A stretch of DNA of 64,000 nt, from assembly GCA_048939765.1 (NCBI GenBank), contig JBHLPF010000007.1, positions 17,241 to 81,240 of the forward strand, written 5' to 3'. Origin of the DNA: Promethearchaeota archaeon. Its GTDB lineage: Archaea > Asgardarchaeota > Thorarchaeia > Thorarchaeales > Thorarchaeaceae. The notes under the pieces were generated by a model. That model made no database searches and was not told where the DNA came from. It was given only the letters and a program-made list of their open reading frames with translations. This document shows positions 1 to 44,160 of the stretch, one piece after another. The stretch's first letter is position 1, and each line of letters starts with the position of its first letter. Made by a program: the position numbers and the translations under genes.

Positions 1-1585
1 CAAAGTAGTAGCCATCCTCGTTGAAGCGGCCTCCATCACCTGTCATGTACATTGGACGACCAGTGTCGGGATCCTTGTACTGTACCCAGTAGGTGTTCTT
101 GAACCGCTCATGGTCTCCGTAGACTGTCCTCATCAGACCAGGCCATGGCTCACGGATACAGATGTAGCCACCCTCGTTGGCGTTAACCGGTTGTCCACCC
201 TCATCAACTATTACAGGTTTCACACCAAAGAATGGCTGAGTTGTGCTACCAGGAATAGTAGCAGTAGCACCAGGCAGAGGGGTGAATATCACACCACCGG
301 TTTCAGTCTGCCAATAGGTATCTACTATTGGACACTTCTCCTTACCAATCTGTTCGTGATACCACATCCAAGCCTCAGGGTTGATGGGCTCACCAACTGT
401 ACCTAGCAAGTTGAGCGAGCTCAGGTTGTGCTTCTTCACTGGGTCCTCACCGAACCTCATCAGAGCCCTGATGGCGGTGGGAGCAGTGTAGAACTGATTG
501 ACCTTCCAGCGCTCGACCTCTAGCCAGAAGCGGTCGTTGTCTGGGTACGTAGGAGTCCCTTCGAACATCATACTTGTAGCGCCTGCGGAGAGAGGCCCAT
601 AGACAATGTATGAGTGGCCTGTGATCCAACCGATGTCGGCAGTGCACCAGTAGACATCGCCAGGGTGCCAGTCGAAGATTGTCTTGAAGGTGTAGGTCGT
701 ATATGTCATGTACCCTCCAACAGTGTGTAGAACACCCTTTGGCTTACCAGTTGAACCAGAGGTGTAGAGGATGAACAGTGGATCCTCAGCGTTAAGCCAC
801 TCAGGCTCGCACTTGTCATCGACCTTTGCGTACTCCTCATGGTACCAGACGTCTCTGGACTCGTCCCAAGGAGTGTCCTCAACGTCCATTCTCTGTACAA
901 CGAGCACTTTTTCGACAATTGAGATGTCCTCAAGTGCATTGTCGGCGTTCTTCTTCTGGGGCACAATCTTGCCGTTTCTGTAGTAAGCATCAGCTGTGAT
1001 GAGGAGCTTGCTCTGACAGTCCACAATTCTGTCCTTCAGTGAGTCAGCAGTGAAACCACCGAAGACAATGCTGTGAACAGCGCCAATTCTTGCACAGGCC
1101 AACATGATGATGGCCAACTCTGGAATCATTGGCATGTAGATAGTTACCGTGTCACCTCTCTTCAGACCGAGATTCTTCAAGACATTGGCTGCCTTATTGA
1201 CCTCGCTCAGAAGCTCCTTGTAGGTGTAAGTCTTGGACTCATCCAGAGGGTCACCCTGCCAGATGAGCGCTATCTGGTCACCATTGCCAGCCTCAACATG
1301 CTTGTCCAGACAGTTGTAGGCCATGTTTGTGACGCCGTCCTCAAACCAAGTGAATCGAATGCCATCAACATCCTTCCACTCGAACCCCTTGGTAGGCGCC
1401 TTCTTCCAGTAAATCAAATCCTTAGTGATCTTGAGCCAGAACTCGTCGGGATTCTTGATAGACTCCTTCCAGATCTTCATCCTCTCCTCTTGGCTCTTGA
1501 TATAGGCCTTCTCGACGAAGCTCTGTGGAGGCGGGAATCGCCGCTCCTCGTGGCTCGTGACAGTGATTTTCTTCTCTTCGGCCAT
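1..1585 (-). CDS. acs: AMP-forming acetyl-CoA synthetase (C-terminus lies outside the window)
   Basis: Absent from the ORF track because it runs off the window edge. My minus-strand translation from the ATG (complement of 1583-1585) reads MAEEKKITVTSHEERRFPPPQSF...WFEDGVTNMAYNCLDKH. The AMP-binding signature ILYTSGSTGKPKGVLHTVGGY sits at about 710-772, in frame with that start. Confidence 0.9.
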   Translation of the reverse strand, partial: MAEEKKITVTSHEERRFPPPQSFVEKAYIKSQEERMKIWKESIKNPDEFWLKITKDLIYWKKAPTKGFEWKDVDGIRFTWFEDGVTNMAYNCLDKHVEAGNGDQIALIWQGDPLDESKTYTYKELLSEVNKAANVLKNLGLKRGDTVTIYMPMIPELAIIMLACARIGAVHSIVFGGFTADSLKDRIVDCQSKLLITADAYYRNGKIVPQKKNADNALEDISIVEKVLVVQRMDVEDTPWDESRDVWYHEEYAKVDDKCEPEWLNAEDPLFILYTSGSTGKPKGVLHTVGGYMTYTTYTFKTIFDWHPGDVYWCTADIGWITGHSYIVYGPLSAGATSMMFEGTPTYPDNDRFWLEVERWKVNQFYTAPTAIRALMRFGEDPVKKHNLSSLNLLGTVGEPINPEAWMWYHEQIGKEKCPIVDTYWQTETGGVIFTPLPGATATIPGSTTQPFFGVKPVIVDEGGQPVNANEGGYICIREPWPGLMRTVYGDHERFKNTYWVQYKDPDTGRPMYMTGDGGRFNEDGYYF

Positions 1586-1787: not shown

Positions 1788-3077
1788 CTATTGAGCAGAC
1801 TTACGCATGAACTTCAGAACAATTGTGAGAATCACAGCAATGATTGCAAGCACACCGGTGACAACAAAGGCCATGAAATAGGAACCAGTTGCATCGACTA
1901 TAGGACCAGCAACAAAAGCACCAGTGATTCCAGCAATTCCATAGGCTGTGAACACCACGCCATAATTCTTGCCAACATTCTTGGAGCCCCAGAAGTCAGC
2001 AGTTGCTGATGGAAACAGTGCGAAGTTGCCACCGAAGCAGAAACCTATGAGTGACGCAATGAGCATGACTGCGACCCAGTCAACAGCCAAGGTTGTGATG
2101 TATGCAAATGTGAACATGCCAATGGCGAGAACCAGAAACATTGTAACCATGGTGTTCGCCCGTCCGAGTCTGTCTGAAACTGCACCCCAGACAATCCTGC
2201 CTGCTGCATTCAATAGACTCATGACACCAACAATGACGGCTGCAAATGCTGCACCACCCATCGGATCGACCTCTACAGCTGCACTCTTCACATTCCCGAG
2301 TGTCATGAGACCCGCAGTGGCTGCAAACACGAACATGAGCCATAGTAACCAGAAGCTTGCTGTTCTAATCATCTCACCCGGCAGGATATCTAGACCCTTT
2401 CCATCTGCAGTAGTCGTGGGGGGCGTGTAACCTACAGGAAGCCAGCCGTCTGGAGGATTTGTAAGGACTTGAGCACCAAGAACCACCAGAACAAGATAGG
2501 CGACACCTAGAATTAAGAAAGGTGCCCCCACCTGCAGAGTTGTCGGAACATTGAACATGCCAAGCAAGAAATCCTCAACATAACCAAAGACAAGTGCACC
2601 GCCTCCAAAGCCAGCAACAGCAATACCGGTGATTGTGCCCTTCTTATCTGGGAACCACTTCACGAGCGCCGCAATTGGGCATACATAGGCAAATCCAATC
2701 CCAGCTCCACCGATGATTCCGTATGTGATGATTAGCCACATAGTCCCAATCATCTCGTTGCCAGCTGCTACTATATCTACCATGAAAGCCAGTATATAGC
2801 CAGCACCTAGAAGCACACCGCCTACAGTAGCAACCTTCCGTGGACCAACCCTATCCTGCCATCTTCCAGCAAATATCATGAACAGCGCAAATGAAGCCAG
2901 ACCAGCTGCAAATGGCAGCTGAGTAAAGAACGCAGACCATGTATATGCGCCGCCTCTGAGGGCTGTTTGGAAGAAGGACCAGGCGTAGATTGAACCTAGA
3001 CACAATTGGACTATGATTGCACCGATAATCACGAGATTTCGGTTTCCAACCTTTTCTTCAGACATCAGATCATTCAC
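1788..3077 (-). CDS. MFS transporter, oxalate/formate antiporter (OFA)-like
   Basis: 429-aa ORF, strongly hydrophobic with a roughly 12-TM pattern. The N-terminus LVIIGAIIVQLCLGSIYAWSFF is typical of OFA-family MFS proteins. Confidence 0.75.
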   Translation of the reverse strand: MNDLMSEEKVGNRNLVIIGAIIVQLCLGSIYAWSFFQTALRGGAYTWSAFFTQLPFAAGLASFALFMIFAGRWQDRVGPRKVATVGGVLLGAGYILAFMVDIVAAGNEMIGTMWLIITYGIIGGAGIGFAYVCPIAALVKWFPDKKGTITGIAVAGFGGGALVFGYVEDFLLGMFNVPTTLQVGAPFLILGVAYLVLVVLGAQVLTNPPDGWLPVGYTPPTTTADGKGLDILPGEMIRTASFWLLWLMFVFAATAGLMTLGNVKSAAVEVDPMGGAAFAAVIVGVMSLLNAAGRIVWGAVSDRLGRANTMVTMFLVLAIGMFTFAYITTLAVDWVAVMLIASLIGFCFGGNFALFPSATADFWGSKNVGKNYGVVFTAYGIAGITGAFVAGPIVDATGSYFMAFVVTGVLAIIAVILTIVLKFMRKSAQ

Positions 3078-3221
3078 CTGAATAATAGTCGAGTCTTGTG
3101 CCGTCGCGCGAGGTTACTAACTGATAAGGGTTCTTACATGACAACAGGTTGTCCGCGTGTTATTTGGAAACGCCTATATGCAGTCTTAGCCGGCATCGGC
3201 CTGTTCAAAAGAGGGATTTCA

Positions 3222-5108
3222 ATGTCAGGAGTCAGATGGGACGAAAAGTACAAGGAGAGGATAATTTCATCCAAGAGTGCCATCAAGAAGATCAAGAGGG
3301 GTGCACGCATCTTCCTAGGAACTGGGTGTGGAGTGCCATATCATTTGGTACAGGAGCTAGCGACTCATGCGGACCAGATGTCGGACAATGAGATAGTCCA
3401 TCTGTTGACTCTAGGCGACACACCTTCCGCAGACCCAAAGTTCCAGGAACAATTCAGGCACAACACCTTCTTCGTATCAGAGAACATCCGTGAAGCAGTT
3501 TCAGAGGGGCGAGCTGACTACTCACCTATAATGCTCTCTGATATTCCTCGTCTCTTTCGGACCAAGAGAATGCCTCTCGATGTTGCATTGATTCAGATTA
3601 GCCCGCCTGATGAGCATGGGTTCAGCTCATTGGGCATCTCGGTCGACATCACAAAGTCTGCTGCAGAGAGTGCAGACCTTGTCATAGCTCAAGTCAACGA
3701 CAAAATGCCCGTCACACATGGAGATTCATTCATTGACATCAAAGATATCGACTATCTGGTTCCATATAATGAGCCTCTGAGGGAGTTCATGTCGCATGAG
3801 GGGGATGAAACCATAGACCTGATTGGCTCCTATGTAGCACGACTCATCGAGAATGAGTCTACTCTGGAGCTAGGGATAGGTGCCTTACCACAGGCCGTCT
3901 GCACTAATCTGGAGGAAACTGGTGTCAAAGACCTTGGAATCCACACCGAGATGTTCAGCGACAGTCTAGTTCCTCTCATAGAGAGTGGAGTTGTCACGAA
4001 CAAGAAGAAGAGCATTCACAGAGGACAGGTCATCGCTAGTTTTGCCATGGGAACAAAGAAACTCTACGATTACATCGATAACAATCCAATGTTTCACTTT
4101 CATGACACAGCCTACGTCAATGACCCATATGTCATAGGTCAGAACAAAAAGATGATAGCTATCAACTCGGCGCTTGAGATTGACCTGACAGGCCAGGTAT
4201 GTGCAGACTCGATTGGTCATAAGTTCTACAGTGGGATTGGCGGTCAGGTAGATTTCATCCGTGGAGCGTCAAGGTCACCAGGTGGGAAAGCTATTATTTG
4301 TATGCAGTCTACAGCCATGGATGGTAAGGTTTCACGGATTGTGCCGCGACTAAGTGAGGGAGCAGGGGTAGTTACGACACGGGGAGATGTTGATGTCGTT
4401 ATAACCGAGTTTGGCCTGGCTATATTGCACGGCAAGACCATCAGAGAACGAGTGCTATCACTGATTGCAGTTGCACATCCGGATTTCAGAAATGAGTTGC
4501 TTGAGGCAGCAAAGAAGATGCACTATGTCTTCGAGGATCAGGTACCGTTTCAAGTGAAGGGAACTTACTTCCCAACAGAATATGAATACCAAGAATCATT
4601 CAAAGGTGTCGAGGGACCTATCAACGTCCGCTTTAGACTCACTCGGCCAGACGATTCGGACAGGATAAAGGATCTATTCTATGGCCTCTCAGAAGAGAGC
4701 ATATACTTCAGGTTCTTGACACCCCTGAGGAGTCTACCCCGACGCACCCTGCAAGACTTCTACGATGTGGATGCCGACCGTGATGTATCGATTGTGGCAG
4801 TAGTCAGTCCAGGCACTGAGGGTAAAGCAGAGAGAATCATAGGAGCAGGGAGGTATTTGCTCAATAGAAGCACCAACGAGGCTGAGTTTGCACTTCTTGT
4901 TCGAGATGAGTATCAAGGAATTGGAATTGGGAGTTTCATGCTAACTCATCTGATGAGGATTGCTAAGAGCAAAGGCGTAGACGCCTTTGTTGCTTTCGTA
5001 CACCCGAAGAATCAGCCTATGATCAGGTTTCTGCATAAGACGGGCAAGATAGTTGAAAGTCATCTGAGCATTCAGGACGACGAGTATACCTTCAAGCTCA
5101 AACTCTAA
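3222..5108 (+). CDS. Acetyl-CoA hydrolase/transferase (4-hydroxybutyrate CoA-transferase-like) domain fused to a C-terminal GNAT acetyltransferase domain, copy 1
   Basis: ORF 3006..5108. The start is moved to the ATG at 3222 (MSGVRWDEKYK) by alignment with the paralog start MACEEWTDKYK. CoA-transferase motifs: GTGCGVP, SPPDEHGFSSLGISVD, STLELGIG, INSALEIDLTGQV, FYSGIGGQVDF. C-terminal GNAT: LSEESIYFRFL, AEFALLV, YQGIGIGSFML. Confidence 0.8.
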   Translation: MSGVRWDEKYKERIISSKSAIKKIKRGARIFLGTGCGVPYHLVQELATHADQMSDNEIVHLLTLGDTPSADPKFQEQFRHNTFFVSENIREAVSEGRADYSPIMLSDIPRLFRTKRMPLDVALIQISPPDEHGFSSLGISVDITKSAAESADLVIAQVNDKMPVTHGDSFIDIKDIDYLVPYNEPLREFMSHEGDETIDLIGSYVARLIENESTLELGIGALPQAVCTNLEETGVKDLGIHTEMFSDSLVPLIESGVVTNKKKSIHRGQVIASFAMGTKKLYDYIDNNPMFHFHDTAYVNDPYVIGQNKKMIAINSALEIDLTGQVCADSIGHKFYSGIGGQVDFIRGASRSPGGKAIICMQSTAMDGKVSRIVPRLSEGAGVVTTRGDVDVVITEFGLAILHGKTIRERVLSLIAVAHPDFRNELLEAAKKMHYVFEDQVPFQVKGTYFPTEYEYQESFKGVEGPINVRFRLTRPDDSDRIKDLFYGLSEESIYFRFLTPLRSLPRRTLQDFYDVDADRDVSIVAVVSPGTEGKAERIIGAGRYLLNRSTNEAEFALLVRDEYQGIGIGSFMLTHLMRIAKSKGVDAFVAFVHPKNQPMIRFLHKTGKIVESHLSIQDDEYTFKLKL

Positions 5109-5179
5109 TCTCCTTAGCCTGTTGGAAATCTCTATATGCCCCGTAGGACCTTGAAGCCAACAATCCAGAGGCGAAATGC

Positions 5180-7072
5180 ATGGCTTGTGAGGAATGGACT
5201 GACAAGTATAAGGACAAGATGCTGTCAGCGGAACAAGCCATAAAGAAAATCAAGCGAGGTACGCGTATCTTCCTTGGCACTGGCTGTGGAGTACCATTCC
5301 ATCTCATGCAGGAGCTGGCAAAGAACGCAAACAAGATGGCTGATAACGAGATAATCCATATGATTACTCTAGGTGACACGCCGTCTGCAGATCCGCATTT
5401 TCAAGAACGTTTCAGGCACAATACCTTCTTTGTTTCAGACAATATACGATCAGCGGTATACGAGGGCAGAGCGGACTATACTCCCACCCATCTCTCAGAC
5501 ATCCCTAGGTTCTTTAGCTCAAAGAGGATTCCATTGGATGTCGCGCTGATTCAAGTCAGTCCTCCTGACGAACATGGGTACTGCTCTCTGGGTATCTCAG
5601 TGGACATCACAAGATCGGCTGCCGAGAATGCAGATCTGGTGATTGCTCAGGTCAATGAGAATGTACCAGTCACCCATGGTGACTCGTTCTTTCATATTCG
5701 TGACATTGACTACCTTGTATGTCATAATGAGCCACTTAGGGAATATCAACCAGAAGAAACAGACGAGAAGAGTGACCTCATAGGGAGCTATGTGGCAAGG
5801 CTAATCGAGAATGAGTCAACAATAGAGCTGGGGATAGGAAGGCTTCAGAGATCTGTCGTCAAACACTTGTTGGAATCCGATGTGAGGGATCTGGGGATTC
5901 ATACGGAGCGATTCGGAGATTCCATCATCGATTTGATTGAAAGTGGCATTGTGACCAATAAGAGGAAGAGCATCAACAGGGGAAAAATCACTACAAGCTT
6001 TGCTATGGGCACACAGAAACTCTATGACTATGTTGACAATAATCCGATGTTTGAGTTTCGAGAGACTTCGTATGTCAATAATCCATCCATTATTGCGCAG
6101 AACCACAAGATGGTGGCAATCAACTCAGCTTTAGAAGTGGACCTAACGGGACAGGTGTGCTCTGACTCCATAGGTCACAGGTTCTACAGTGGTATAGGGG
6201 GGCAAGTGGACTTCATCAGAGGGGCATCCATGTCACCTGGTGGAAAGGCCATCATATGCATGACATCTACTGCATTGGATGGCACTGTTTCAAGGATTGT
6301 GCCACGTCTAAGCGAGGGAGCAGGGGTGGTGACAACACGTGGTGACGTTGAGGTAGTAATCACTGAGTATGGGCAAGCAACTCTCAGAGGAAGGACCATC
6401 CGAGAGCGTGTGTTATCACTGATTGCTATCGCGCATCCTAAGTTCCGGAACAACTTACTTGAAGCGGCGAAAGAGATGCGTTATGTATTCTCAGACCAAA
6501 TCCCGTTTCAGGTAAAAGGCACATACTTCCCCCTTGAATATGAAGCACACGAGACCTTTGATGGCCAAGAAGGCGAGATCGATGTTCGGTTCCGATTAAT
6601 CAGACCTGATGACACGGACAGAATCAAGGAGTTGTTCTATGACCTGAGCGAAGAATCGATCTTCTTCAGATTCCTTACACCTCTCGAGAGCCTCCAAAGG
6701 CAGACATTGCAAGACTTCTACAATGTAGACCAGTCAAGAGACATCAGCATTGTAGCAACAATCTGTTGTGACGAAGAGGGCACCACCGAGAAGATAATTG
6801 GTGCAGCAAGGTATCTTCTTGACTTTCATAAGAATGAGGCTGAGTTTGCCATTCTCATCCAGGATGATTACCAAAAGAGGGGTATTGGAACGTTCCTACT
6901 TTCTCACTTGATGCGAATAGCTAAGAGCAAAGGTGTGAAGGCGTTCCTTGCTTATGTGCATCCAAAGAATCAGCCCATGATTAGGTTTCTGCAGAAGTTC
7001 GGACTGTCAATGACACTGGAGAGTTATCCCAATATCCAAGAGAATGAATATGTCTTCAAATTGATCCTCTAG
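5180..7072 (+). CDS. Acetyl-CoA hydrolase/transferase domain fused to a C-terminal GNAT domain, copy 2 (tandem paralog)
   Basis: 630-aa ORF, collinear with copy 1 and roughly 70 percent identical by eye. It has the same motifs (STIELGIG, FYSGIGGQVDF, LSEESIFFRFL, AEFAILI, YQKRGIGTFLL). Confidence 0.8.
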   Translation: MACEEWTDKYKDKMLSAEQAIKKIKRGTRIFLGTGCGVPFHLMQELAKNANKMADNEIIHMITLGDTPSADPHFQERFRHNTFFVSDNIRSAVYEGRADYTPTHLSDIPRFFSSKRIPLDVALIQVSPPDEHGYCSLGISVDITRSAAENADLVIAQVNENVPVTHGDSFFHIRDIDYLVCHNEPLREYQPEETDEKSDLIGSYVARLIENESTIELGIGRLQRSVVKHLLESDVRDLGIHTERFGDSIIDLIESGIVTNKRKSINRGKITTSFAMGTQKLYDYVDNNPMFEFRETSYVNNPSIIAQNHKMVAINSALEVDLTGQVCSDSIGHRFYSGIGGQVDFIRGASMSPGGKAIICMTSTALDGTVSRIVPRLSEGAGVVTTRGDVEVVITEYGQATLRGRTIRERVLSLIAIAHPKFRNNLLEAAKEMRYVFSDQIPFQVKGTYFPLEYEAHETFDGQEGEIDVRFRLIRPDDTDRIKELFYDLSEESIFFRFLTPLESLQRQTLQDFYNVDQSRDISIVATICCDEEGTTEKIIGAARYLLDFHKNEAEFAILIQDDYQKRGIGTFLLSHLMRIAKSKGVKAFLAYVHPKNQPMIRFLQKFGLSMTLESYPNIQENEYVFKLIL

Positions 7073-8107: not shown

Positions 8108-8947
8108 TTGGAGCACGAAAGGAGTCTGCAAATCCTATTAAGTTCAATAATTATGGGAATCTTGTGTTTAGGACAGAGGTGGCAATGGCAGTTGGATGAT
8201 TCATTTGAGAAGCACATCAGCTCTGAGGGGGCAGAGCCCGTTGTAAGAGCGTGCTCTTGGTGTGGAAAACGTGAAACACGGGGTCGTTGGAGTGGAACTA
8301 GGTTCTCTTATTGCTCATTCAGATGTCTTGCTGCGGCCGAGCATCGAATTTCTCTGCTCATCGCGATCTTGATGACACCATTCTTCCTAGCGATCCTCCT
8401 GTTCCCTCAGGTAATGTACGAGATCATCTTGGCAGGGGCAACTCCCTACGGAACAACGAGCCCTCTCGCGCCCGGTTTCGCCGTAATCATTATACTGTTA
8501 ATCTCTGGACTCAGCATTGGGTCACTCTACGCAGCATATGTTGGATGGACTGTACGGCGAAGGAGTGACACAGTATTCATTGGCGATATGCCAGACACTC
8601 AACTCTACCCGAAACAAGGACAGTATGGCGACACGGGGCACCGCTGTGAATGGTGCGGAAGCACAAGAGTAAGTGCGTCGTGGAGCGGCAAGAGCGGCAT
8701 CTACTGTTCCCTCAGATGCAGTGCTGCAGGAGACTATCGCAGATTCATATTACTCTCAGTTCTTGTTTTTGCAATGACGAGTATTGTTGGACTATTGGCG
8801 ATCAGGACATTTACTCAGAGCCCTGGGGGACCATTGGTCTCACCCTTGGTTTTTCTATTGATCCTACTTGGGTTGGACTTGGTGTTCGCGTATCCGGCGT
8901 ATTTGGGCTGGTCGATGAACCGGACAAGGCAACGTGAGAACCTGTAG
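8108..8947 (+). CDS. Membrane protein made of two tandem [C-x2-C-x16-C-x3-C zinc-ribbon + 2 TM] modules
   Basis: 279-aa ORF with a TTG start in the track (an ATG alternative is at 8153). It contains CSWCGKRETRGRWSGTRFSYCSFRC and CEWCGSTRVSASWSGKSGIYCSLRC. Each is followed by hydrophobic helices and a YxAY[VL]GW[TS] motif. Confidence 0.6.
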   Translation: MEHERSLQILLSSIIMGILCLGQRWQWQLDDSFEKHISSEGAEPVVRACSWCGKRETRGRWSGTRFSYCSFRCLAAAEHRISLLIAILMTPFFLAILLFPQVMYEIILAGATPYGTTSPLAPGFAVIIILLISGLSIGSLYAAYVGWTVRRRSDTVFIGDMPDTQLYPKQGQYGDTGHRCEWCGSTRVSASWSGKSGIYCSLRCSAAGDYRRFILLSVLVFAMTSIVGLLAIRTFTQSPGGPLVSPLVFLLILLGLDLVFAYPAYLGWSMNRTRQRENL

Positions 8948-21754: not shown

Positions 21755-22651
21755 CTATTTGAACAGCTCATGAAGGTGAATCTGATGCTCTCCCAGTTTT
21801 CCACCATAATTGCCTGCAGTCATCTTTGTGATGCCAGGATATTTGCAGACCTCTTCGATAGCGACCTTAGTGGCTTTGGCAACTGCTTCTTTAGTCAGGC
21901 CGTTGATCACTATCTCCTGCGCGAACTCACTGCCCTTTGGCATCATGGTATCAGGTACTAATGCACGCAACGTTGGACAGAATTTCTCGTTTGTCGACGC
22001 AAAAAGAACCTTGTATCGCGATGATGGTTTGGATCCTGAGCCTACCAGCCCTCCAGGGAATGGCGTGTAGGCACCCTCAACCTTCTCTATAGCCTTGACT
22101 GCAGCTTTACCACTGTCCATGCCGCTCTTTACATCTTTGCAGGTGTAGATAATATTGCCGCCAGCAACTCCCTTCACACGGCCGAAGAGATTCTGCATGA
22201 CACAGGTCCCGCTCATCCTTGGAATCAGCCATAGAACTCTTCCATCGATTGGACCCTTCTTGGTCTGATAGCCATCTCCAAACAATGATACCTTCTTCCC
22301 TATCTCATAGAGGTCCTTGGGATTAGGGGTGTCATCAAAGGCGCTCGCTGTTGGGCTTGTGAGAACGCACTGACCTAGTCTGGCTAGCAATTGCGGCTCG
22401 AGTTTCTTCTTCGAACCAACTGCAAATATCACTCTGACGCCGGGTCGACCGTCTGGAGTTTCATCGGGTCCAAGCAAGTACTCAATTCCTGCCTCTGCGG
22501 GAGCCATAATCACTGAAGTGCCAAACCCTGTTGCCTCCAAGGCAGTCGTATAGGCCCACTCTTGATCATAGGCAGTAATGATGGTCCTGTTCATATGCAT
22601 ACTGAATGCTTCTGCAAATGTGTCCTCGATTGGTACACCGTTGATCTCCAT
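21755..22651 (-). CDS. ftr: Formylmethanofuran:tetrahydromethanopterin N-formyltransferase
   Basis: MEINGVPIEDTFAEAF...TGFGTSVIMAPAEAGIE...GNYGGKLGEHQIHLHELF is collinear with Ftr as I remember it from methanogens. The start is taken at MEINGV. Confidence 0.9.
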   Translation of the reverse strand: MEINGVPIEDTFAEAFSMHMNRTIITAYDQEWAYTTALEATGFGTSVIMAPAEAGIEYLLGPDETPDGRPGVRVIFAVGSKKKLEPQLLARLGQCVLTSPTASAFDDTPNPKDLYEIGKKVSLFGDGYQTKKGPIDGRVLWLIPRMSGTCVMQNLFGRVKGVAGGNIIYTCKDVKSGMDSGKAAVKAIEKVEGAYTPFPGGLVGSGSKPSSRYKVLFASTNEKFCPTLRALVPDTMMPKGSEFAQEIVINGLTKEAVAKATKVAIEEVCKYPGITKMTAGNYGGKLGEHQIHLHELFK

Positions 22652-22788
22652 CTCGCGCACCACTGTATTTGGTGTGAGTACGGGCAACACTTGTGCTATT
22701 TCTTTCTTACCTATTTAGGCAAGTCGGCCGTTCAGAGGTTTTAAGAGGAGGAAAGGATTCGAACATCGTCATTAGGATGGTCTGACTC

Positions 22789-23643
22789 ATGACTGTGCAT
22801 CTGAAGTTGACCAAGGAACCGGACATCCCTCTAGAAGCTGACACCATAACTCCGACCCATTTTGCAGGGAAGAGCGCTGCAGAGATAGGAAAGCTTCCAG
22901 TTCTTCAGGGAAATCAGACCTTTGAACTTGCGACCTTCTTTGATATCTCTGGAGATGCAGGTGCCACTGCCGACGAGACTGAGATTGTTGTGAGTGGCAA
23001 TTTGAAAGATGTCAAGATGATAGGCAAGGGTATGAATGGGGGAAGAATCACCGTGGAAGGAGATGTTGGCATGTATCTAGGTGCTGAGATGATAGCAGGC
23101 AGAATACACGTCAAGGGCTCCGTGGGCTCATGGGCCGCTGCAGAGATGGAGGGTGGAAACATCCAGATAGAAGGAGATGCTGGTGATTACCTCTGTGCCG
23201 GCTATCGTGGTAGTCCAGATGGGATGAAAGGAGGCAGGGTCTATGTCGCAGGTAATGTGGGACGCGAGATGGGCGCCCATATGAGAAAGGGCTTCATCGC
23301 AGTGAAAGGCGATGTAGACACACTTGCAGGAGTCAGAATGAAAGGGGGAACAATCATAGTTGTAGGGAATATCGCAGACCGTCTTGGTGTTGAGGCCACG
23401 AAGGGTATGATATTCTGCCTAGGAAAGGTGGATTCGCTACTGCCCACCTACAAGTTCAGTGGCAGTTCTGAGAGAGAGTTCACGAACTACTACTTGAAAT
23501 ACCTGAAGTCGCGCAGACCAGACTTCATCAGTGAAGACCTGGACCTTGCTGAAAAATGGGCGAAGTTCATGGGCGACTTTGCAGAGGGCGATCCGAAACA
23601 GGAGATCTATCTGCGTGAAACAGCAAATCAACACTTACTCTGA
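22789..23643 (+). CDS. fwdC: Formylmethanofuran dehydrogenase subunit C-like protein
   Basis: 284-aa ORF with the repeated Gly-rich beta-helix motif (GGRITVEGDVG, GRIHVKGSVG, GGNIQIEGDAG, GGRVYVAGNVG, GFIAVKGDV, GGTIIVVGN). Confidence 0.85.
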   Translation: MTVHLKLTKEPDIPLEADTITPTHFAGKSAAEIGKLPVLQGNQTFELATFFDISGDAGATADETEIVVSGNLKDVKMIGKGMNGGRITVEGDVGMYLGAEMIAGRIHVKGSVGSWAAAEMEGGNIQIEGDAGDYLCAGYRGSPDGMKGGRVYVAGNVGREMGAHMRKGFIAVKGDVDTLAGVRMKGGTIIVVGNIADRLGVEATKGMIFCLGKVDSLLPTYKFSGSSEREFTNYYLKYLKSRRPDFISEDLDLAEKWAKFMGDFAEGDPKQEIYLRETANQHLL

Positions 23644-23655
23644 GGAGAGAGGAGT

Positions 23656-24627
23656 ATGAAAGATCCAAGCGTTAACGAGAAGGCACTAGAGATTGTCAAG
23701 GAGATGATGGATAGAAAGGACGAACTCAATTGTACTGTGACTGAGCAGGGTAATGGAGCTACCCTGATTGACGCGGGTATTGATGTGTCCGGGGGAATTG
23801 AGGCTGGAAGACTCGTCGGGGAAATCTGTCTCGGAGGCCTTGGAACCGTTAGGATTGCCCACCAGCACGTTGGCGACATGACATTTCCTGCAGTGGTGGT
23901 CAGTACCGATCATCCTAGGATTGCGACCATGGGATCCCAATTTGCAGGATGGGCTGTTGATGTCAAAGGTGACGAGGGGAAGTATTTCGCAATGGGTTCA
24001 GGTCCAGCCAGAGCGCTTGCGGTAGTCGAGAAGAAGCTCTACAAGGAGCTTGACTACAAGGACGAGGCCAAGGTCGGTGTGATTGTGATTGAAACACGAA
24101 CTCCACCTCCTGAGTTTGCAACCAATTTCATTGCTGAGAAATGTGGAATCTCATCATCAGACCTCTATTGTGTAATGACACCGACCGCTTGTGTTGCTGG
24201 TTCGGTGCAGATTTCAGCCAGGGTTGTAGAAGTGGGCGTACACAAGCTGCACGAGTTGAAGTTCGACCCAGCCAAGATTCGAGCCGGACATGGTGTTGCA
24301 CCTATAGGGCCAGTAGCCAAGAACGACAATAAGGCGATGGGGGTCACAAATGACTGCATTCTATATGCTGGGCGTACGTTCTACTTCATCAGGCCAGATG
24401 AGGAGGATGCCCTTGCAGACCTGATAGAGAAGGCACCGTCTTCAGCATCTGAACAATACGGTCAGCCCTTCTTCAAGCTGTTCAAGAGTTTCGAGTTTGA
24501 CTTCTATAAGGTCGATCCGCTTCTCTTCAGCCCTGCAGAAATCACCCTTAATGACATTGTCAAGGGCAAGACCTACAAAGCAGGGTACGTGAATGCAGAG
24601 GTTCTGAAACAATCATTTGGAATGTAG
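23656..24627 (+). CDS. mch: Methenyltetrahydromethanopterin cyclohydrolase
   Basis: 323-aa ORF. SVNEKALEIVKEMMDRKDELNCTV...GATLIDAGIDVSGGIEAGRLVGEICLGGLG is collinear with Mch. Confidence 0.9.
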   Translation: MKDPSVNEKALEIVKEMMDRKDELNCTVTEQGNGATLIDAGIDVSGGIEAGRLVGEICLGGLGTVRIAHQHVGDMTFPAVVVSTDHPRIATMGSQFAGWAVDVKGDEGKYFAMGSGPARALAVVEKKLYKELDYKDEAKVGVIVIETRTPPPEFATNFIAEKCGISSSDLYCVMTPTACVAGSVQISARVVEVGVHKLHELKFDPAKIRAGHGVAPIGPVAKNDNKAMGVTNDCILYAGRTFYFIRPDEEDALADLIEKAPSSASEQYGQPFFKLFKSFEFDFYKVDPLLFSPAEITLNDIVKGKTYKAGYVNAEVLKQSFGM

Positions 24628-40414: not shown

Positions 40415-41686
40415 TTAGGCGTTTAGATTCTCAATAACAGTGGCAACGCCCTGTCCGCCACCAACACAGGCATTGGCAACTCCATATTTCGCGTTATTCT
40501 CTTTGAGAATTCTTGCCAGAGTGCCGGTCAACCTGATCATGGTTGAACCTAGAGGATGTCCAATCGCAGTGGAACCACCCATTACATTCACCTTCTCCTC
40601 CGGAATGTTCAGTTTATCCATGCAGTTGAGTGCAACAATGCAGAAAGCCTCATTGATTTCCCAGTAGTCAATGTCCTCGACGCTTAATCCTGCATGCTTG
40701 AGGGCCTTTTTGGTGGCAGGTACAGGTCCACGACCCATCACAGTTGGATCGACTCCAGCCCATCCCATGGAAACAATCCTTGCCATTGGCTCCGCACCTC
40801 GCTTTTCAGCCTCCTTTGCCTCCATTATGACCGCGGCAGTAGCACCTGCATTGAGAGGCGAGGCATTGCCCGGTGTAATCACTCCCTCTTCAGTCCCTTC
40901 TCGCTTGATATAGCCCTCTTTTCCACCATTCTTCTCAAGGAAGAAGGGGATTGATACTCTTGGGAGAGTTGAAACCTTCTCAAGTGTTGAGGGTCGTGCA
41001 CTCAGATCCCTGTCCACCAACATGGGTTCGTCAACATTGCCAGGTGTATGTCCCTCAATAGGGATAATCTCCCCCTTGAACCATCCACTCTCCTGATTCT
41101 TGACTGTTAGATTGTGACTTCTCACACCGAATTTGTCCATGTCCTCCTTGGTAAAGGTGGGAACCTCTTCCTCGTACAGCTTCTGGGCTGTCTGTAACAT
41201 GTTGAACACTGTCGCGGGGTCCAGGCCGGGTCGGTAGAACTCTGAAGCCTCGTCAGCAAAAGACAGGTTAGGTTCGACTCCCTTCCCCCTCACTCGGGTC
41301 ATATGCTCAAATCCCGTTGATAGCACGGTTTTGCTGTACCCGGTCATAATCTCCATGATACCAATATGCATTCCAGAGCCTGCAGACCCACACTGACGGT
41401 CGACAAAGATAGATGGAACATCATGTGGAAATCCTGACAGGAAGGCTGGAATCTTGCCCCCATAGGTCCAGTTCTCAAGGACTCCGGCGGCCACACCAAT
41501 GGTGATCTCATCGATGTCCTTCTTCTCAATTCCTTTGTTCGCCAATGAACCATCAAAGAATTTCATCAGCAACCGTGATAGGAGCTCATCTCCCCTAATC
41601 TCACCAAAGGCGTCAGTTTCTGGCTTATTGGGACGCGATCGTGAGAATGGGGTACGCACATAATCGACCAGCCAAACTTCTTTCAT
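40415..41686 (-). CDS. Thiolase (acetyl-CoA C-acyl/acetyltransferase)
   Basis: The C-terminal NACVGGGQGVATVIE and GHPLGSTMIRL are thiolase signatures. The start is taken at MKEVWLVDYVRTPFSR; the track ORF extends to 41737. Confidence 0.9.
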   Translation of the reverse strand: MKEVWLVDYVRTPFSRSRPNKPETDAFGEIRGDELLSRLLMKFFDGSLANKGIEKKDIDEITIGVAAGVLENWTYGGKIPAFLSGFPHDVPSIFVDRQCGSAGSGMHIGIMEIMTGYSKTVLSTGFEHMTRVRGKGVEPNLSFADEASEFYRPGLDPATVFNMLQTAQKLYEEEVPTFTKEDMDKFGVRSHNLTVKNQESGWFKGEIIPIEGHTPGNVDEPMLVDRDLSARPSTLEKVSTLPRVSIPFFLEKNGGKEGYIKREGTEEGVITPGNASPLNAGATAAVIMEAKEAEKRGAEPMARIVSMGWAGVDPTVMGRGPVPATKKALKHAGLSVEDIDYWEINEAFCIVALNCMDKLNIPEEKVNVMGGSTAIGHPLGSTMIRLTGTLARILKENNAKYGVANACVGGGQGVATVIENLNA

Positions 41687-41728
41687 GGCTTCCCCAGAAG
41701 GACTTCTGAGTTTTAACTCTTCTTTCGA

Positions 41729-42565
41729 ATGGAGCATGAAAGAGGATTTATCTCACAGGACGCCCTCCAACAGCTCATGCCCAGGGTCCTGATACATGAC
41801 ATTGAAACCTACTATGAAATAGCCGGCGAGGGAGAAGCAATCGTGTTTGTTCACGGCGCAGCTGGTTCTCACGACAACTGGCGCCCTCAGGTTAAGCACC
41901 TGTCCGACCGCTTCGAAGTCGTGACATACGATATAAGGGGACACGGGAAGTCAAGTGGGTCTGACAGGAAATATAGCTGTGAGCTCTTCGCAGATGATCT
42001 GAATGGGCTGATAACCGCACTCGAGTTAGAAAGACCCGTTGTCTGTGGGCTCTCTCTTGGAGGGATGATAGCCCAGCAGTACGCTGTAAGGCATCAGTCC
42101 GGTCTTGCGGGACTTGTACTGGCGGACACTGCAGTGGCCTCAGCTCTGACCCTCTCAGACAAGCTTCAGAAATGGATGTTCCCAGTGAGCCTGGTCAAAT
42201 GGTATATTCGCAGAAAGACTCCAGAAGACTATGCGAGATGGTCATTCAAGTATTTCGACATGAAGGATGATGTGAGAGAGTATCTGATTCAGGAACAACT
42301 TCGAATGGATCAGACAGAGTTTCTCAAACTGATGGATGCCATCTATGGGTTTAAGCTGCTTGACCTTGCCAGCATCAAAGTGCCAACGCTTGTGGTACTG
42401 GGTGAGAATGAACGAAAGGCAGTCTTTCCGCATGCAGACAAGATGATAGAGCTGATTGAGGGCTCAAGGAAGGTCGTTATTCCGGATGCTGGACATGCCT
42501 CCAATCTAGAGAATCCCACCGAGTTCAATCGAGTGCTTGACGAGTTCTTGGAACACGTGTTCTAA
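41729..42565 (+). CDS. Alpha/beta hydrolase fold protein
   Basis: Has VFVHGAAGSHDNW, the nucleophile elbow GLSLGG and DAGHASNLE. The start may be at 41777. Confidence 0.8.
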   Translation: MEHERGFISQDALQQLMPRVLIHDIETYYEIAGEGEAIVFVHGAAGSHDNWRPQVKHLSDRFEVVTYDIRGHGKSSGSDRKYSCELFADDLNGLITALELERPVVCGLSLGGMIAQQYAVRHQSGLAGLVLADTAVASALTLSDKLQKWMFPVSLVKWYIRRKTPEDYARWSFKYFDMKDDVREYLIQEQLRMDQTEFLKLMDAIYGFKLLDLASIKVPTLVVLGENERKAVFPHADKMIELIEGSRKVVIPDAGHASNLENPTEFNRVLDEFLEHVF

Positions 42566-44160
42566 ATCTTCTTCTCGAGATAGGGTCCTGTATCGTTGAA
42601 ATCAAGGGCGCGATAATATTCCTTGACTCCAATTCCGCTGTTCACAATCAGCCTGTTGACTTGGAAATCCTCGAGTGTGATTCGCTCTGCCTCTTTGAGC
42701 ATGCGGTCTCCAAGACCCAAATGCTGCCACGCATCCGGGTTCCTCTCACCAATCTCTACAACAGGACCATACACTCTGAGCTCTCTAATAATGGCGCAGG
42801 GGCTATGATTAATCTCGGGGCGGTGAGCCTGGTCACTGGGCATGCGGAGTCTGAGGAATCCAAAGATGATATCTTGACTTTGCTTCTCGAAGGAAAGAAA
42901 GATTTCTAGGCCATCTGCAGCCTCATAGTCACGACGCACCAGCTCAATACCTTCAAAACTCACCTTTTGTCCGGTCCGCATCTGAAAGTGACCAATCTCT
43001 CTGTATCGAATCGTTGGGTTTCTCAGACCTTTCTCACTCATTCGATGATGCACCAGCTCTCGTAGGTTTCCTTTGCTGAAACCAGCCTCTATCTGATGGA
43101 GTGGGATGTCCCTCTGCATCCTCTGGATACGAACATACTCGGGCATTTTGCTGACTGCATTAGAGACGAGTTCCACGACTTGATCATCAGAATAGGGACT
43201 GTATATTCCCTGTTCCCACCACTCGAACAGCTTTGTATTCTTCACCACAAGCGTAGGATAGATCTTCAGCATATCTGGTTGAAACCTAGAATCAGTGAAT
43301 AATGCTTCAAAGTCTTCAAGGTCAGAGTCTGAAGTATTTCCAGGTAGACCAGGCATCATATGATAGCACACTTTCAGTCCGCTATCCCTGAGCATCTTTG
43401 TCGCTTGGATGGTCTGTTCAAGCAGATGACCTCTCTGTACCCGTTCTAGGACCTCATCCGAGAGCGTCTGAACACCGATTTCCACACGGGTAGCACCCAT
43501 TTCCAGCATGCTATCGATGCTTTCAGGAATCACCCAATCCGGTCGAGTTTCGAATGTGAGACCTACGTTGCGGACCTTAGCTGTTTCGTTCGTCTTCTGT
43601 GACTCATTCAAACTCCCTCCGACTGTCCTATTCATTGCATCGAAACAGCCCTTGACAAAAGACTCCCTGTAGTCAGGCTCCTTCGAACACCAGTCGCCAC
43701 CCATGACTATTAGTTCCACCTTTTGGACCGAATGACCGATCGTATCCAACTGATTTAGCCTGCTCTCTACCTGCCTGAATGAATCAAAGTCATTTTGCAG
43801 CCCTCTCATTGTGGCAGGTTCATGACCTGTATAGCTCTGGGGAACTCCTGCATCAGGCCCACCAGGACAATATGCGCACGCACCATGAGGACACTTATGA
43901 GGTTCTGTCATGACAGCAACAACAGCGACTCCGGAAACTGTACGAACAGGTCGTTTCTGCATCAGAGGCTGAAGTATTTCTAGCTCTTCAGGAATTGCCG
44001 CTTGCAACACGTCTGCGTTTGATGGGACTCGGGACGCCTTATGCAGTCCACAGATCCTGCTCTTGATTTGATTTATCTCACGCCGATCAAGAGCCGTTTC
44101 TGAGCTAAGAAGGGATTCGATAATCTCTCTATACAGTGCATAGTAATCTGGGAGAGGCAT
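42562..44160 (-). CDS. elp3: Elp3-type radical SAM + GNAT tRNA U34 modification enzyme
   Basis: 532-aa ORF with PHKCPHGACAYCPGGP, a radical-SAM TIM region and a C-terminal GNAT (HLGLGDRMLKEAE). Confidence 0.9.
   Translation of the reverse strand: MPLPDYYALYREIIESLLSSETALDRREINQIKSRICGLHKASRVPSNADVLQAAIPEELEILQPLMQKRPVRTVSGVAVVAVMTEPHKCPHGACAYCPGGPDAGVPQSYTGHEPATMRGLQNDFDSFRQVESRLNQLDTIGHSVQKVELIVMGGDWCSKEPDYRESFVKGCFDAMNRTVGGSLNESQKTNETAKVRNVGLTFETRPDWVIPESIDSMLEMGATRVEIGVQTLSDEVLERVQRGHLLEQTIQATKMLRDSGLKVCYHMMPGLPGNTSDSDLEDFEALFTDSRFQPDMLKIYPTLVVKNTKLFEWWEQGIYSPYSDDQVVELVSNAVSKMPEYVRIQRMQRDIPLHQIEAGFSKGNLRELVHHRMSEKGLRNPTIRYREIGHFQMRTGQKVSFEGIELVRRDYEAADGLEIFLSFEKQSQDIIFGFLRLRMPSDQAHRPEINHSPCAIIRELRVYGPVVEIGERNPDAWQHLGLGDRMLKEAERITLEDFQVNRLIVNSGIGVKEYYRALDFNDTGPYLEKKI

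Follow-up and report, generated by a model that had tools for sequence, protein, structure and literature searches.

Tandem genes encoding a CoA-transferase–GNAT fusion in a Thorarchaeota contig: a candidate architectural type of Pat-like lysine acetyltransferase

Two tandem fusion genes and their domains

The stretch of DNA analysed here (64,000 nucleotides of contig JBHLPF010000007.1, from a Promethearchaeota archaeon placed in the Thorarchaeia; hereafter the window) contains two adjacent open reading frames (ORFs), ORF1 and ORF2, each of which joins a coenzyme A (CoA)-transferase domain to a GNAT domain (Table 1). A first-pass annotation, made from the sequence alone, had described them as two neighbouring ORFs of 628 and 630 amino acids with a spacer of 71 nucleotides (5109..5179) and about 70% identity by eye; the positions and lengths were confirmed, every motif string that it quoted was found, and a full-length BLASTP alignment, interrupted by a single two-residue gap, had 73% identical and 86% positive positions (E = 0). 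The start of ORF1 called mechanically lies at 3006, but because its orthologues begin at the ATG at 3222, which is preceded by an AGAGGGA motif, that position was adopted. ORF1 is 100% identical to a database protein labelled 'GNAT family N-acetyltransferase [Promethearchaeota archaeon]' (P0001), and its relatives form more than 120 clusters at approximately 80% identity from metagenome-assembled genomes (MAGs) of Thorarchaeota and other Asgard archaea, all with the same architecture. Both ORF1 and ORF2 retain all of the catalytic residues discussed below.

In the N-terminal part of ORF1 and ORF2, both Pfam domains of the CoA-transferase family scored above their gathering thresholds: AcetylCoA_hydro (PF02550) at residues 13–184 (E = 1.7e-32 and 2.3e-34; 113.5 and 119.6 bits, cut-off 24) and AcetylCoA_hyd_C (PF13336) at residues 277–430 (E = 1.3e-67 and 6.7e-69; 226.9 and 231.2 bits, cut-off 23.7). 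The closest PDB entries to the approximately 440 N-terminal amino acids were 9vag, 3eh7, 2oas, 3d3u, and 3gk7 (E = 1e-133 to 1e-108), the top match, 9vag, being 50% identical to ORF1 residues 9–430. These matches bear out the proposed likeness to 4-hydroxybutyrate CoA-transferase, and by homology the domain is identified as a Cat1-family (4-hydroxybutyrate or short-chain-acid:acetyl-CoA) CoA-transferase. The scores against the NCBIfam model for butyryl-CoA:acetate CoA-transferase (TIGR03948; 309.6 bits for ORF1 and 305.1 for ORF2) were far below the cut-off of 674.8, so the two proteins are not equivalogs of that enzyme.

The active site of AbfT from C. aminobutyricum (3GK7) is Glu238, within the sequence GIHSEM; its QXGhG loop (Gly215–Ile219) flips, gates the active site, and touches CoA, and Gln337 of its GXGGQ motif contacts CoA (PMC11659651). 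Glu243 of ORF1 and ORF2, within GIHTE[MR]F, aligns with Glu238, and Gln342 of SGIGGQVDF aligns with Gln337, so that the GXGG-like motif reported earlier is indeed intact. On the other hand, the string ST[LI]ELGIG (STLELGIG or STIELGIG, residues 213–220), which had been taken for a catalytic 'EXG' motif, aligns with the gating loop, and its Glu216 stands where the characterised enzymes have Gln. The claim that the catalytic residues are retained therefore survives, but by way of a different motif. With the predicted nucleophile Glu243 and both CoA-binding loops intact, the domain looks catalytically competent. ORF1 and ORF2 thus belong to the same fold family as AbfT and the TIGR03948 enzymes and share with them the gating loop, the GXGGQ motif, and the catalytic Glu; they differ in the Glu of the gating loop and in an additional linker of approximately 35 amino acids followed by a GNAT domain of approximately 145.

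The Pfam models Acetyltransf_1 and Acetyltransf_3 matched residues 470–609 of both ORFs, a region that includes the motifs LSEESI[YF]FRFL (489–499), AEFA[LI]L (554–559), and QGIGIG or QKRGIG (565–570), the last being the acetyl-CoA P-loop of the form Q/RxxGxG/A, and the best NCBIfam match for the C-terminal region was 'acetyltransferase Pat' (NF058543). In the PDB, the best matches were 4nxy and 4u5y (8.5e-16), deposited as 'Acyl-CoA synthetase' and which we take to be the GNAT domain of S. lividans PatA, then the full-length Pat structures 9isq and 9it0 (2.6e-13); Sulfolobus Pat (3f8k) and MsPat and MtPat (4orf, 4ava) were also matched, and the next family reached only 3.6e-5. Glu555 of the AEFA motif of ORF1 aligns with Glu809 in the DAEFAVLV segment of the 886-amino-acid protein in 9it0. 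When the 182-residue C-terminus was used as the query of an exhaustive phmmer search, 9369 hits were obtained among 1.84 billion (1.84e9) cluster representatives. Of the 150 best, 47 had a CoA-transferase domain upstream of the GNAT, including 22 full-length proteins (601–663 amino acids), and the remainder were stand-alone GNATs or other multidomain proteins. The multidomain matches that were scanned were mostly canonical Pat (Succ_CoA_lig, ATP-grasp_5, and CoA_binding with a GNAT, in either order), and the nearest relatives of differing architecture were canonical Pat proteins of both domain orders. A word-index search with the GNAT alone returned almost exclusively short Thorarchaeota fragments. 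Because the top PDB matches and the exhaustive search both point to Pat, with SlPatA, E. coli-type Pat, SsPat, and MsPat as nearest relatives, the label 'Pat-type' is well supported for this domain, as had been proposed for the C-terminal 180 or so amino acids, which match both GNAT and Pat-type profiles. An NDP-forming acyl-CoA-synthetase-like domain (CoA_binding, Succ_CoA_lig, ATP-grasp_5), present in the true Pat representatives, was not found in ORF1 or ORF2 in the Pfam scans. The two proteins thus fall outside types I and II of Pat, and the partner fold of the GNAT differs from that of Pat, as the first-pass annotation had stated.

Table 1. Positions of genes, domains, key residues, and promoter-like elements in the window
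Feature	Position	Strand	Remarks
AMP-forming acetyl-CoA synthetase (ACS), N-terminal ~528 codons	1..1585	-	start MAEEKK at 1585; C-terminus with the acetylation-site lysine lies past the left edge
MFS monocarboxylate transporter, SfMCT type ('L-lactate MFS transporter')	1788..3077	-	divergent from ORF1, upstream of ACS
Promoter-like element TTGGAAACGCCTATATGC, BRE/TATA-like	3164..3181	+	ends 41 nt before ORF1 ATG
ORF1	3222..5108	+	628 aa; Cat1-family CoA-transferase 1–432, linker 433–468, Pat-type GNAT 469–610; clade A
ORF1 Glu216, ELGIG loop (QXGhG CoA-gating loop)	3867..3869	+	aligned to Q213-L-G-I-G217 of 3gk7
ORF1 Glu243 (GIHTEMF), predicted CoA-thioester-forming catalytic Glu	3948..3950	+	aligned to Glu238 of AbfT 3gk7; codon checked
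ORF1 SGIGGQVDF 338–346, GXGGQ CoA-binding/oxyanion motif	4233..4259	+	Q342 aligned to Gln337 of AbfT
ORF1 GNAT 469–610	4626..5051	+	Glu555 at 4884-4886; Q565-G-I-G-I-G570
Promoter-like element, second copy TTGGAAATCTCTATATGC	5122..5139	+	ends 41 nt before ORF2 ATG
ORF2	5180..7072	+	630 aa; same three-part architecture as ORF1; clade B
ORF2 Glu243 (GIHTERF)	5906-5908	+	aligned to Glu238 of AbfT 3gk7
ORF2 GGQ	6197-6205	+	GXGGQ motif
ORF2 GNAT	6584-7009	+	Glu555 at 6842-6844
Ftr, tetrahydromethanopterin (H4MPT)-dependent Wood-Ljungdahl	21755-22690	-	part of cluster 21755-24627
GXGXG-motif protein, possibly FwdC-like	22789-23643	+	part of cluster 21755-24627
Mch, H4MPT-dependent Wood-Ljungdahl	23656-24627	+	part of cluster 21755-24627
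Pyruvate-formate-lyase-like glycyl-radical enzyme, 788 aa	33429-35795	-	acyl-CoA-related
Thiolase	40415-41737	-	acyl-CoA-related
Elp3 homologue (radical SAM + ELP3_N)	42562-44160	-

Among the loci compared, two adjacent fusion copies were found only in the window and at the Thorarchaeota loci L001, L003, and L004. In a neighbour-joining tree, the Thorarchaeota fusion sequences formed two clades: clade A comprised ORF1 and every copy adjoining the transporter and acetyl-CoA synthetase (ACS) genes, and clade B comprised ORF2, the second copies of L003, L004, and L001, and an isolated gene at L010. The duplication is therefore old within the Thorarchaeia, and the second paralogue has been lost or relocated in many lineages of this class. 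The 64 kb of the window hold exactly two copies of an 18-nucleotide pattern, TTGGAAAYSYCTATATGC, one before each start codon, where 0.01 would be expected; in other Thorarchaeota MAGs, its core is kept upstream of the orthologues of clade A. The element resembles the B recognition element (BRE)/TATA arrangement of archaeal promoters and may well function as one; each paralogue would therefore have its own copy of the same promoter, which suggests that the duplication took the promoter along and that ORF2 has its own transcription start. A further conserved block, CTAACTGATAAGGGTTCTTACAT, lies at approximately 3116–3140, between the MFS gene and ORF1, and is common to the upstream regions of L003, L004, L005, and L011; it may be a promoter or operator for the divergent MFS–ACS genes.

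Distribution, conservation, and gene neighbourhood of the fusion

When one genome per GTDB species was scanned with a query built from a six-sequence C-terminal alignment, 590 relatives were obtained; the family figures given here cover the loci of the best 80 of these, with neighbourhoods taken from 79 loci and residues from 78 full-length proteins. A full-length fused ORF was present at all 80 loci. These belonged to Thorarchaeota (n = 10), to at least 12 bacterial phyla, and to other archaea. The bacterial sources were Planctomycetota (Pirellulales, Sedimentisphaerales, Phycisphaerae), Desulfobacterota, Anaerolineae/Dehalococcoidia, Calditrichia, Chitinivibrionales/Fibrobacterota, Latescibacterota, Lentisphaerae, Acidobacteriota, Nitrospirota, Myxococcota, Bipolaricaulota, and Verrucomicrobiota; the other archaeal sources were Thermoplasmata, Aenigmatarchaeota, and a 'Methanobacteriota' MAG. 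The architecture, which had been put forward as something to look for across the archaea, is thus mostly bacterial and common in MAGs, and is no archaeal oddity. All of the sources were MAGs or single-cell assemblies, which is probably why the fusion protein has gone unstudied.

The catalytic Glu of the CoA-transferase was kept in all 78 full-length fused proteins, the GGQ in 73, and the GNAT Glu in 77, and the CoA-transferase domain was the most conserved part of the protein (mean top-residue frequency 0.69, versus 0.57 for the GNAT). A divergent minority (P0223, P0202, P0189, P0183, and P0253) has replaced the catalytic Glu with Cys, Pro, His, Pro, or Ala and/or lost the GXGG motif, but still has all of the GNAT motifs. 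Of 21 divergent fused representatives (alignment A1), some 5 to 10 lack the Glu or the GXGG. The large domain of this minority seems to have turned into a Pat-like sensor without catalytic activity. The same degenerate-sensor reading was rejected for the main family, given that all 78 proteins retain the Glu. No self-acetylation lysine specific to the fused family was found. Apparent triple fusions of an ADP-forming synthetase, a CoA-transferase, and a GNAT (L082, L056, and L031) were discarded as upstream ORF extensions in GC-rich DNA.

Clustering of the ORFs flanking the fusion at the 79 loci revealed four recurrent families, at least one of which was present at 57 loci; these are raw counts of loci that carry the fused gene, uncorrected for phylogeny. 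An ADP-forming acyl-CoA synthetase of approximately 700 amino acids (CoA_binding_2, Succ_CoA_lig, Ligase_CoA_2, ATP-grasp_5) was encoded within 10 kb at 41 loci, at 26 of which its gene immediately precedes the fusion on the same strand; its phosphohistidine loop, SSHTGSLAG, kept the histidine in 39 of 39 proteins, and the enzyme looks catalytically competent. A Hist_deacetyl (HDAC) protein was encoded at 22 loci, at 14 of them directly downstream of the fusion, and its nearest solved relatives are the class-I enzymes HDAC1/2/8, Rpd3, and Clr6, not those of the APAH type. The AMP-forming acetate–CoA ligase, ACS, was found at 25 loci, with 24 of 26 ACS proteins ending in the canonical acetylation motif, PKTRSGKIMRR, and an SfMCT-type MFS transporter at 21, in Thorarchaeota and bacteria alike. 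In several bacteria, the gaps between the synthetase, fusion, and HDAC genes are only 2–20 nucleotides (e.g., L018:1336-6532 and L022:6721-11869), so these genes form an operon, and in several bacterial cases with an HDAC, ACS is also encoded within 10 kb. These operons of bacterial synthetase, fusion, and HDAC (loci L017-L082) echo the pairing of synthetase and GNAT that is covalent in classical Pat, which hints at how Pat architectures evolved. At one further locus (L083), P0151, a stand-alone GNAT of 175 amino acids that is 48% identical to the GNAT of ORF1, is encoded directly downstream of the fused gene; this placement comes from one of two short contigs (JGI sample 3300042731, 1656-bp contig).

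The Thorarchaeota loci follow a pattern of their own: the transporter was present at nine of 10 and ACS at eight of 10, divergent beside the fusion, as is also the case in the complete genome CP070761.1, and no HDAC was found at the Thorarchaeota loci where ACS adjoins. In the window, positions 1576..5 match residues 31–553 of the ACS from L001 at 73% identity (tblastn); this L001 orthologue scored 993 bits against the NCBIfam acetate–CoA ligase model, and the ACS orthologues at eight other Thorarchaeota loci terminate in PKTRSGKIMRR. The transporter of the window matched Pfam MFS_1 (1.2e-43) and exceeded the cut-off of the NCBIfam SfMCT model (NF049980; 389 bits, cut-off 320). Its conserved pairing with ACS suggests that it may carry acetate or other monocarboxylates. 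At L001 (CP070761.1), two additional genes lie between the ACS and MFS genes, one encoding a stand-alone GNAT of 173 amino acids with weak similarity to ArsN1 and PaiA (L001:5854-6375, minus strand) and the other being a 92-amino-acid ORF; neither occurs in the window.

Elsewhere, the window encodes fibrillarin/Nop5 and archaeal ribosomal proteins (Pfam scans) in addition to the enzymes listed in Table 1, a gene content that fits an Asgard archaeon with acetyl-CoA-centred metabolism. A 279-amino-acid ORF (8108-8947, plus strand) without a Pfam match contains an internal duplication, in which a Cys-rich module (C-x-W-C-G ... W-S-G ... Y-C-S-x-R-C-x-A-A) occurs twice, with hydrophobic stretches after each copy.

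A possible role in the control of acetate activation

Reversible lysine acetylation of ACS is a textbook case of prokaryotic metabolic control by protein modification. The interpretation that we favour, with moderate confidence, is that the family of ORF1 and ORF2 consists of Pat-like lysine acetyltransferases of a new architectural type, acting at the node of acetate and short-chain acyl-CoA metabolism; the conserved neighbours suggest that the fusion serves as an on/off switch for acetate and acyl-CoA metabolism. With acetyl-CoA as donor, the GNAT domain would modify the active-site lysine of the ACS encoded next to it; further acyl-CoA enzymes, among them the fusion protein itself, may also be targets. 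Acetylation of ACS would shut down ATP-consuming acetate activation when acetyl-CoA is abundant, and ACS would also be silenced while the acetate-forming ADP-forming synthetase and the CoA-transferase are running, so that no futile ATP-consuming cycle arises. In bacteria, the deacetylase of the same operon would undo the modification. The CoA-transferase domain would take the position of the dead NDP-forming synthetase-like domain of classical Pat and would probably still be an enzyme, which may move CoA from acetyl-CoA to imported monocarboxylates, the freed acetate being re-activated by ACS; one polypeptide would both spend acetyl-CoA and report its level. CoA-transferases of the Cat1 family are dimers, and the Thorarchaeota paralogues may therefore form homo- or heterodimers.

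Several points weigh against this interpretation. It is built on homology and gene context, and ACS is proposed as the target from the neighbourhood and the GNAT subfamily. The AlphaFold2 model of ORF1, derived from a Thorarchaeota-only alignment, was poor (predicted local distance difference test score, pLDDT, 68.5; predicted template modelling score, pTM, 0.53) and so allows no statement on the packing of, or communication between, the domains. E809 is the postulated catalytic base of PatZ/SePat but is not strictly needed for catalysis by Pat (PMC8556138), and the conservation of the equivalent Glu is therefore weak proof of activity. The divergent members that lack the Glu or the GXGG indicate that CoA-transferase catalysis is not essential to every member. 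Furthermore, 22 of the 79 loci had none of the four neighbours, though many of the contigs concerned are short. In the window itself, tblastn detected no homologue of the HDAC or the ADP-forming synthetase, and Pfam scans of 30 further window ORFs of at least 230 amino acids detected no HDAC or sirtuin, so that only part of the bacterial module is present.

Among the alternatives, a self-regulating CoA-transferase, in which the GNAT acetylates its own CoA-transferase domain in cis or across the dimer and the neighbouring HDAC erases the mark, appears rather unlikely, although it is compatible with the interpretation above and does not exclude it. Functional partners are often fused, and the stand-alone GNAT P0151 directly follows a fused gene on one of two contigs. 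In T. thermophilus, the stand-alone homologue TtCoAT (TT_C1083), a broad short-chain-acid:acetyl-CoA transferase, is the most heavily acetylated protein dependent on a lysine acetyltransferase (KAT) and the main substrate of both the writer, the GNAT TT_C1711, and the eraser, the Zn-dependent lysine deacetylase (KDAC) TT_C0104 (bioRxiv 10.1101/2025.10.31.685773). The PDB entry 9vag begins with SYRKK, which fits Lys5 and Lys6 of TtCoAT, and is on this ground probably its structure. According to the authors of that study, however, the Lys5 site is confined to Thermus, and acetylation alone left the activity of TtCoAT unchanged; ORF1 has Glu12 at this position. In the fused family, the invariant Lys263 also occurs in the unfused PDB homologues, leaving no family-specific lysine, and self-regulation does not explain the recurrent linkage to an ACS with an intact acetylation motif.

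The intact CoA-transferase residues throughout the family also allow for a channelled acyl donor: the CoA-transferase would make lactyl-, butyryl-, propionyl-, or 4-hydroxybutyryl-CoA, with which the fused GNAT would acylate proteins. The adjacent transporter scores above the cut-off of an 'L-lactate MFS transporter' model, TtCoAT takes many short-chain acids with acetyl-CoA as the donor, and the CoA-transferase YdiF reportedly supplies lactyl-CoA in the lysine-lactylation system of E. coli. In the same organism, YiaC and CobB are reported to regulate lysine lactylation (PMC9636275). Against this, free acyl-CoA normally diffuses, the structural model lends no support to a tunnel or to facing active sites, the characterised Pat-type GNATs mainly use acetyl-CoA or propionyl-CoA, and the divergent members without the catalytic Glu keep their GNAT, which in them must be independent of a CoA-transferase product. 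We regard channelling as unlikely. A bolder form of the idea, to which we assign a small probability, is a self-supplying writer of metabolite-specific lysine acylation, in which lactate, butyrate, or 4-hydroxybutyrate would enter by the SfMCT-type transporter, be converted to its CoA thioester, and be passed to the fused GNAT; if true, ACS or other proteins would be marked by an acyl group that encodes the carbon source present, and such encoding would exist in Asgard archaea and many anaerobic bacteria. That the large domain is instead a pure sensor, catalytically silent, which binds acyl-CoA and steers the GNAT allosterically or drives oligomerisation, would agree with type I and II Pat, whose synthetase-like domain works in this way, and with the losses of the Glu or GXGG in the divergent representatives; the near-complete retention of these residues elsewhere and the high conservation of the domain are the pattern expected from selection for catalysis and make this very unlikely. 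The first-pass annotation had left the choice between a protein acyltransferase and a small-molecule N-acyltransferase open, and the association with ACS, the ADP-forming synthetase, the HDAC, and the transporter favours the former and disfavours the latter. GNATs are functionally promiscuous, automatic annotation of the protein says just 'GNAT family N-acetyltransferase', and weak NCBIfam matches to ArsN1, PaiA, RimI, and AAC models (E = 1e-6 to 1e-2) would be compatible with N-acylation of an amine metabolite (an amino acid, a polyamine, or an aminoglycoside-like compound) without any protein regulation. However, the Pat-family matches are stronger by 7 to 10 orders of magnitude, the Pat signature LSxESxYxRF with AE[FV]A is present, the co-operonic partner resembles a class-I HDAC-type protein deacetylase and not the APAH type, and the linked ACS bears the acetylation motif, so that we hold a small-molecule acceptor to be the least probable of the possibilities considered.

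Comparison with known acetylation systems

A literature search for the CoA-transferase–GNAT architecture found no description of it, and the published classification of prokaryotic KATs comprises five types, none with a CoA-transferase (PMC8556138), so the earlier remark that no characterised member was known still stands. The same annotation had allowed that the architecture might turn out to be a common, already characterised family; common it is, being widespread in GTDB, but no described member was found, and the database labels for the fusion are just 'GNAT family N-acetyltransferase' or 'acyl-CoA hydrolase/GNAT'. Judged by its domains, the fusion fits none of the five types and may represent a sixth architectural type among prokaryotic KATs. 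Since both domains, the logic of ACS as a target, and the pairing of writer and eraser are already familiar, it does not count as categorically new.

If the proposed role of the fusion as a Pat-like acetyltransferase is correct, the KATs would gain a sixth type, found widely among uncultured anaerobes such as Planctomycetota, Desulfobacterota, Chloroflexota, Nitrospirota, Thermoplasmata, and Asgard archaea. Acetyl-CoA, the metabolite that the GNAT reads, would also be used by the regulatory domain, which appears to be a working enzyme. Together with the transporter and ACS, the operon offers a hypothesis on how cells that ferment or make acetate keep acetate formation and activation from running as a futile cycle, and in the Asgard archaea, the closest prokaryotic relatives of eukaryotes, the fusion would provide an entry to lysine-acetylation signalling.

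The closest parallel is Pat itself (SePat, E. coli PatZ/YfiQ, and S. lividans PatA). Both Pat and AcuA respond to acetyl-CoA by acetylating ACS at its catalytic lysine, which in AMP-forming acyl-CoA synthetases lies in a PX4GK motif, and a sirtuin or AcuC reverses this (PMC8556138; PMC11910552). The GNAT subfamily, the LSxESxYxRF motif, and the Glu at position 555 in ORF1 and ORF2 and 809 in Pat are common to Pat and the fusion, as is the joining of a large acyl-CoA-binding domain to a GNAT, and both are tied to the AMP-forming ACS, Pat functionally (PMC8556138) and the fusion by gene neighbourhood. In type I and II Pat, however, the large domain is a dead homologue of the NDP-forming synthetases that binds acetyl-CoA and confers cooperativity (PMC8556138). 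The partner in Pat is thus an inactive synthetase-like domain of approximately 700 amino acids, whereas that in the fusion is a Cat1 CoA-transferase of approximately 440 amino acids that keeps its catalytic residues. Unlike Pat, the fusion also often adjoins a gene for a separate ADP-forming synthetase, whose phosphohistidine loop is intact.

The acsA-acuABC locus of B. subtilis resembles many bacterial fusion loci in that a GNAT writer and a Zn-dependent class-I HDAC-like eraser are encoded beside acs, and it gives acetyl-CoA-dependent feedback on ACS (PMC11910552; PMC8556138). AcuA, however, is a stand-alone GNAT (discussed as type IV, or as type III should AcuB work together with it; PMC8556138) and not a CoA-transferase fusion. 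Unlike acsA-acuABC, the fusion module includes the ADP-forming synthetase and the MFS transporter, and the Thorarchaeota window has no HDAC nearby.

In the Thermus system, the proteins are separate and the GNAT acts in trans, with regulation through an NAD+-sensing alanine-dehydrogenase-like partner and a Lys5 specific to Thermus, whereas the fusion proteins carry the GNAT on the same polypeptide and lack Lys5. A functional link of a Cat1-family enzyme with a GNAT and a Zn-deacetylase is shown experimentally in Thermus, and the fusion family complements the finding in T. thermophilus of a Cat1-family CoA-transferase within a KAT/KDAC circuit.

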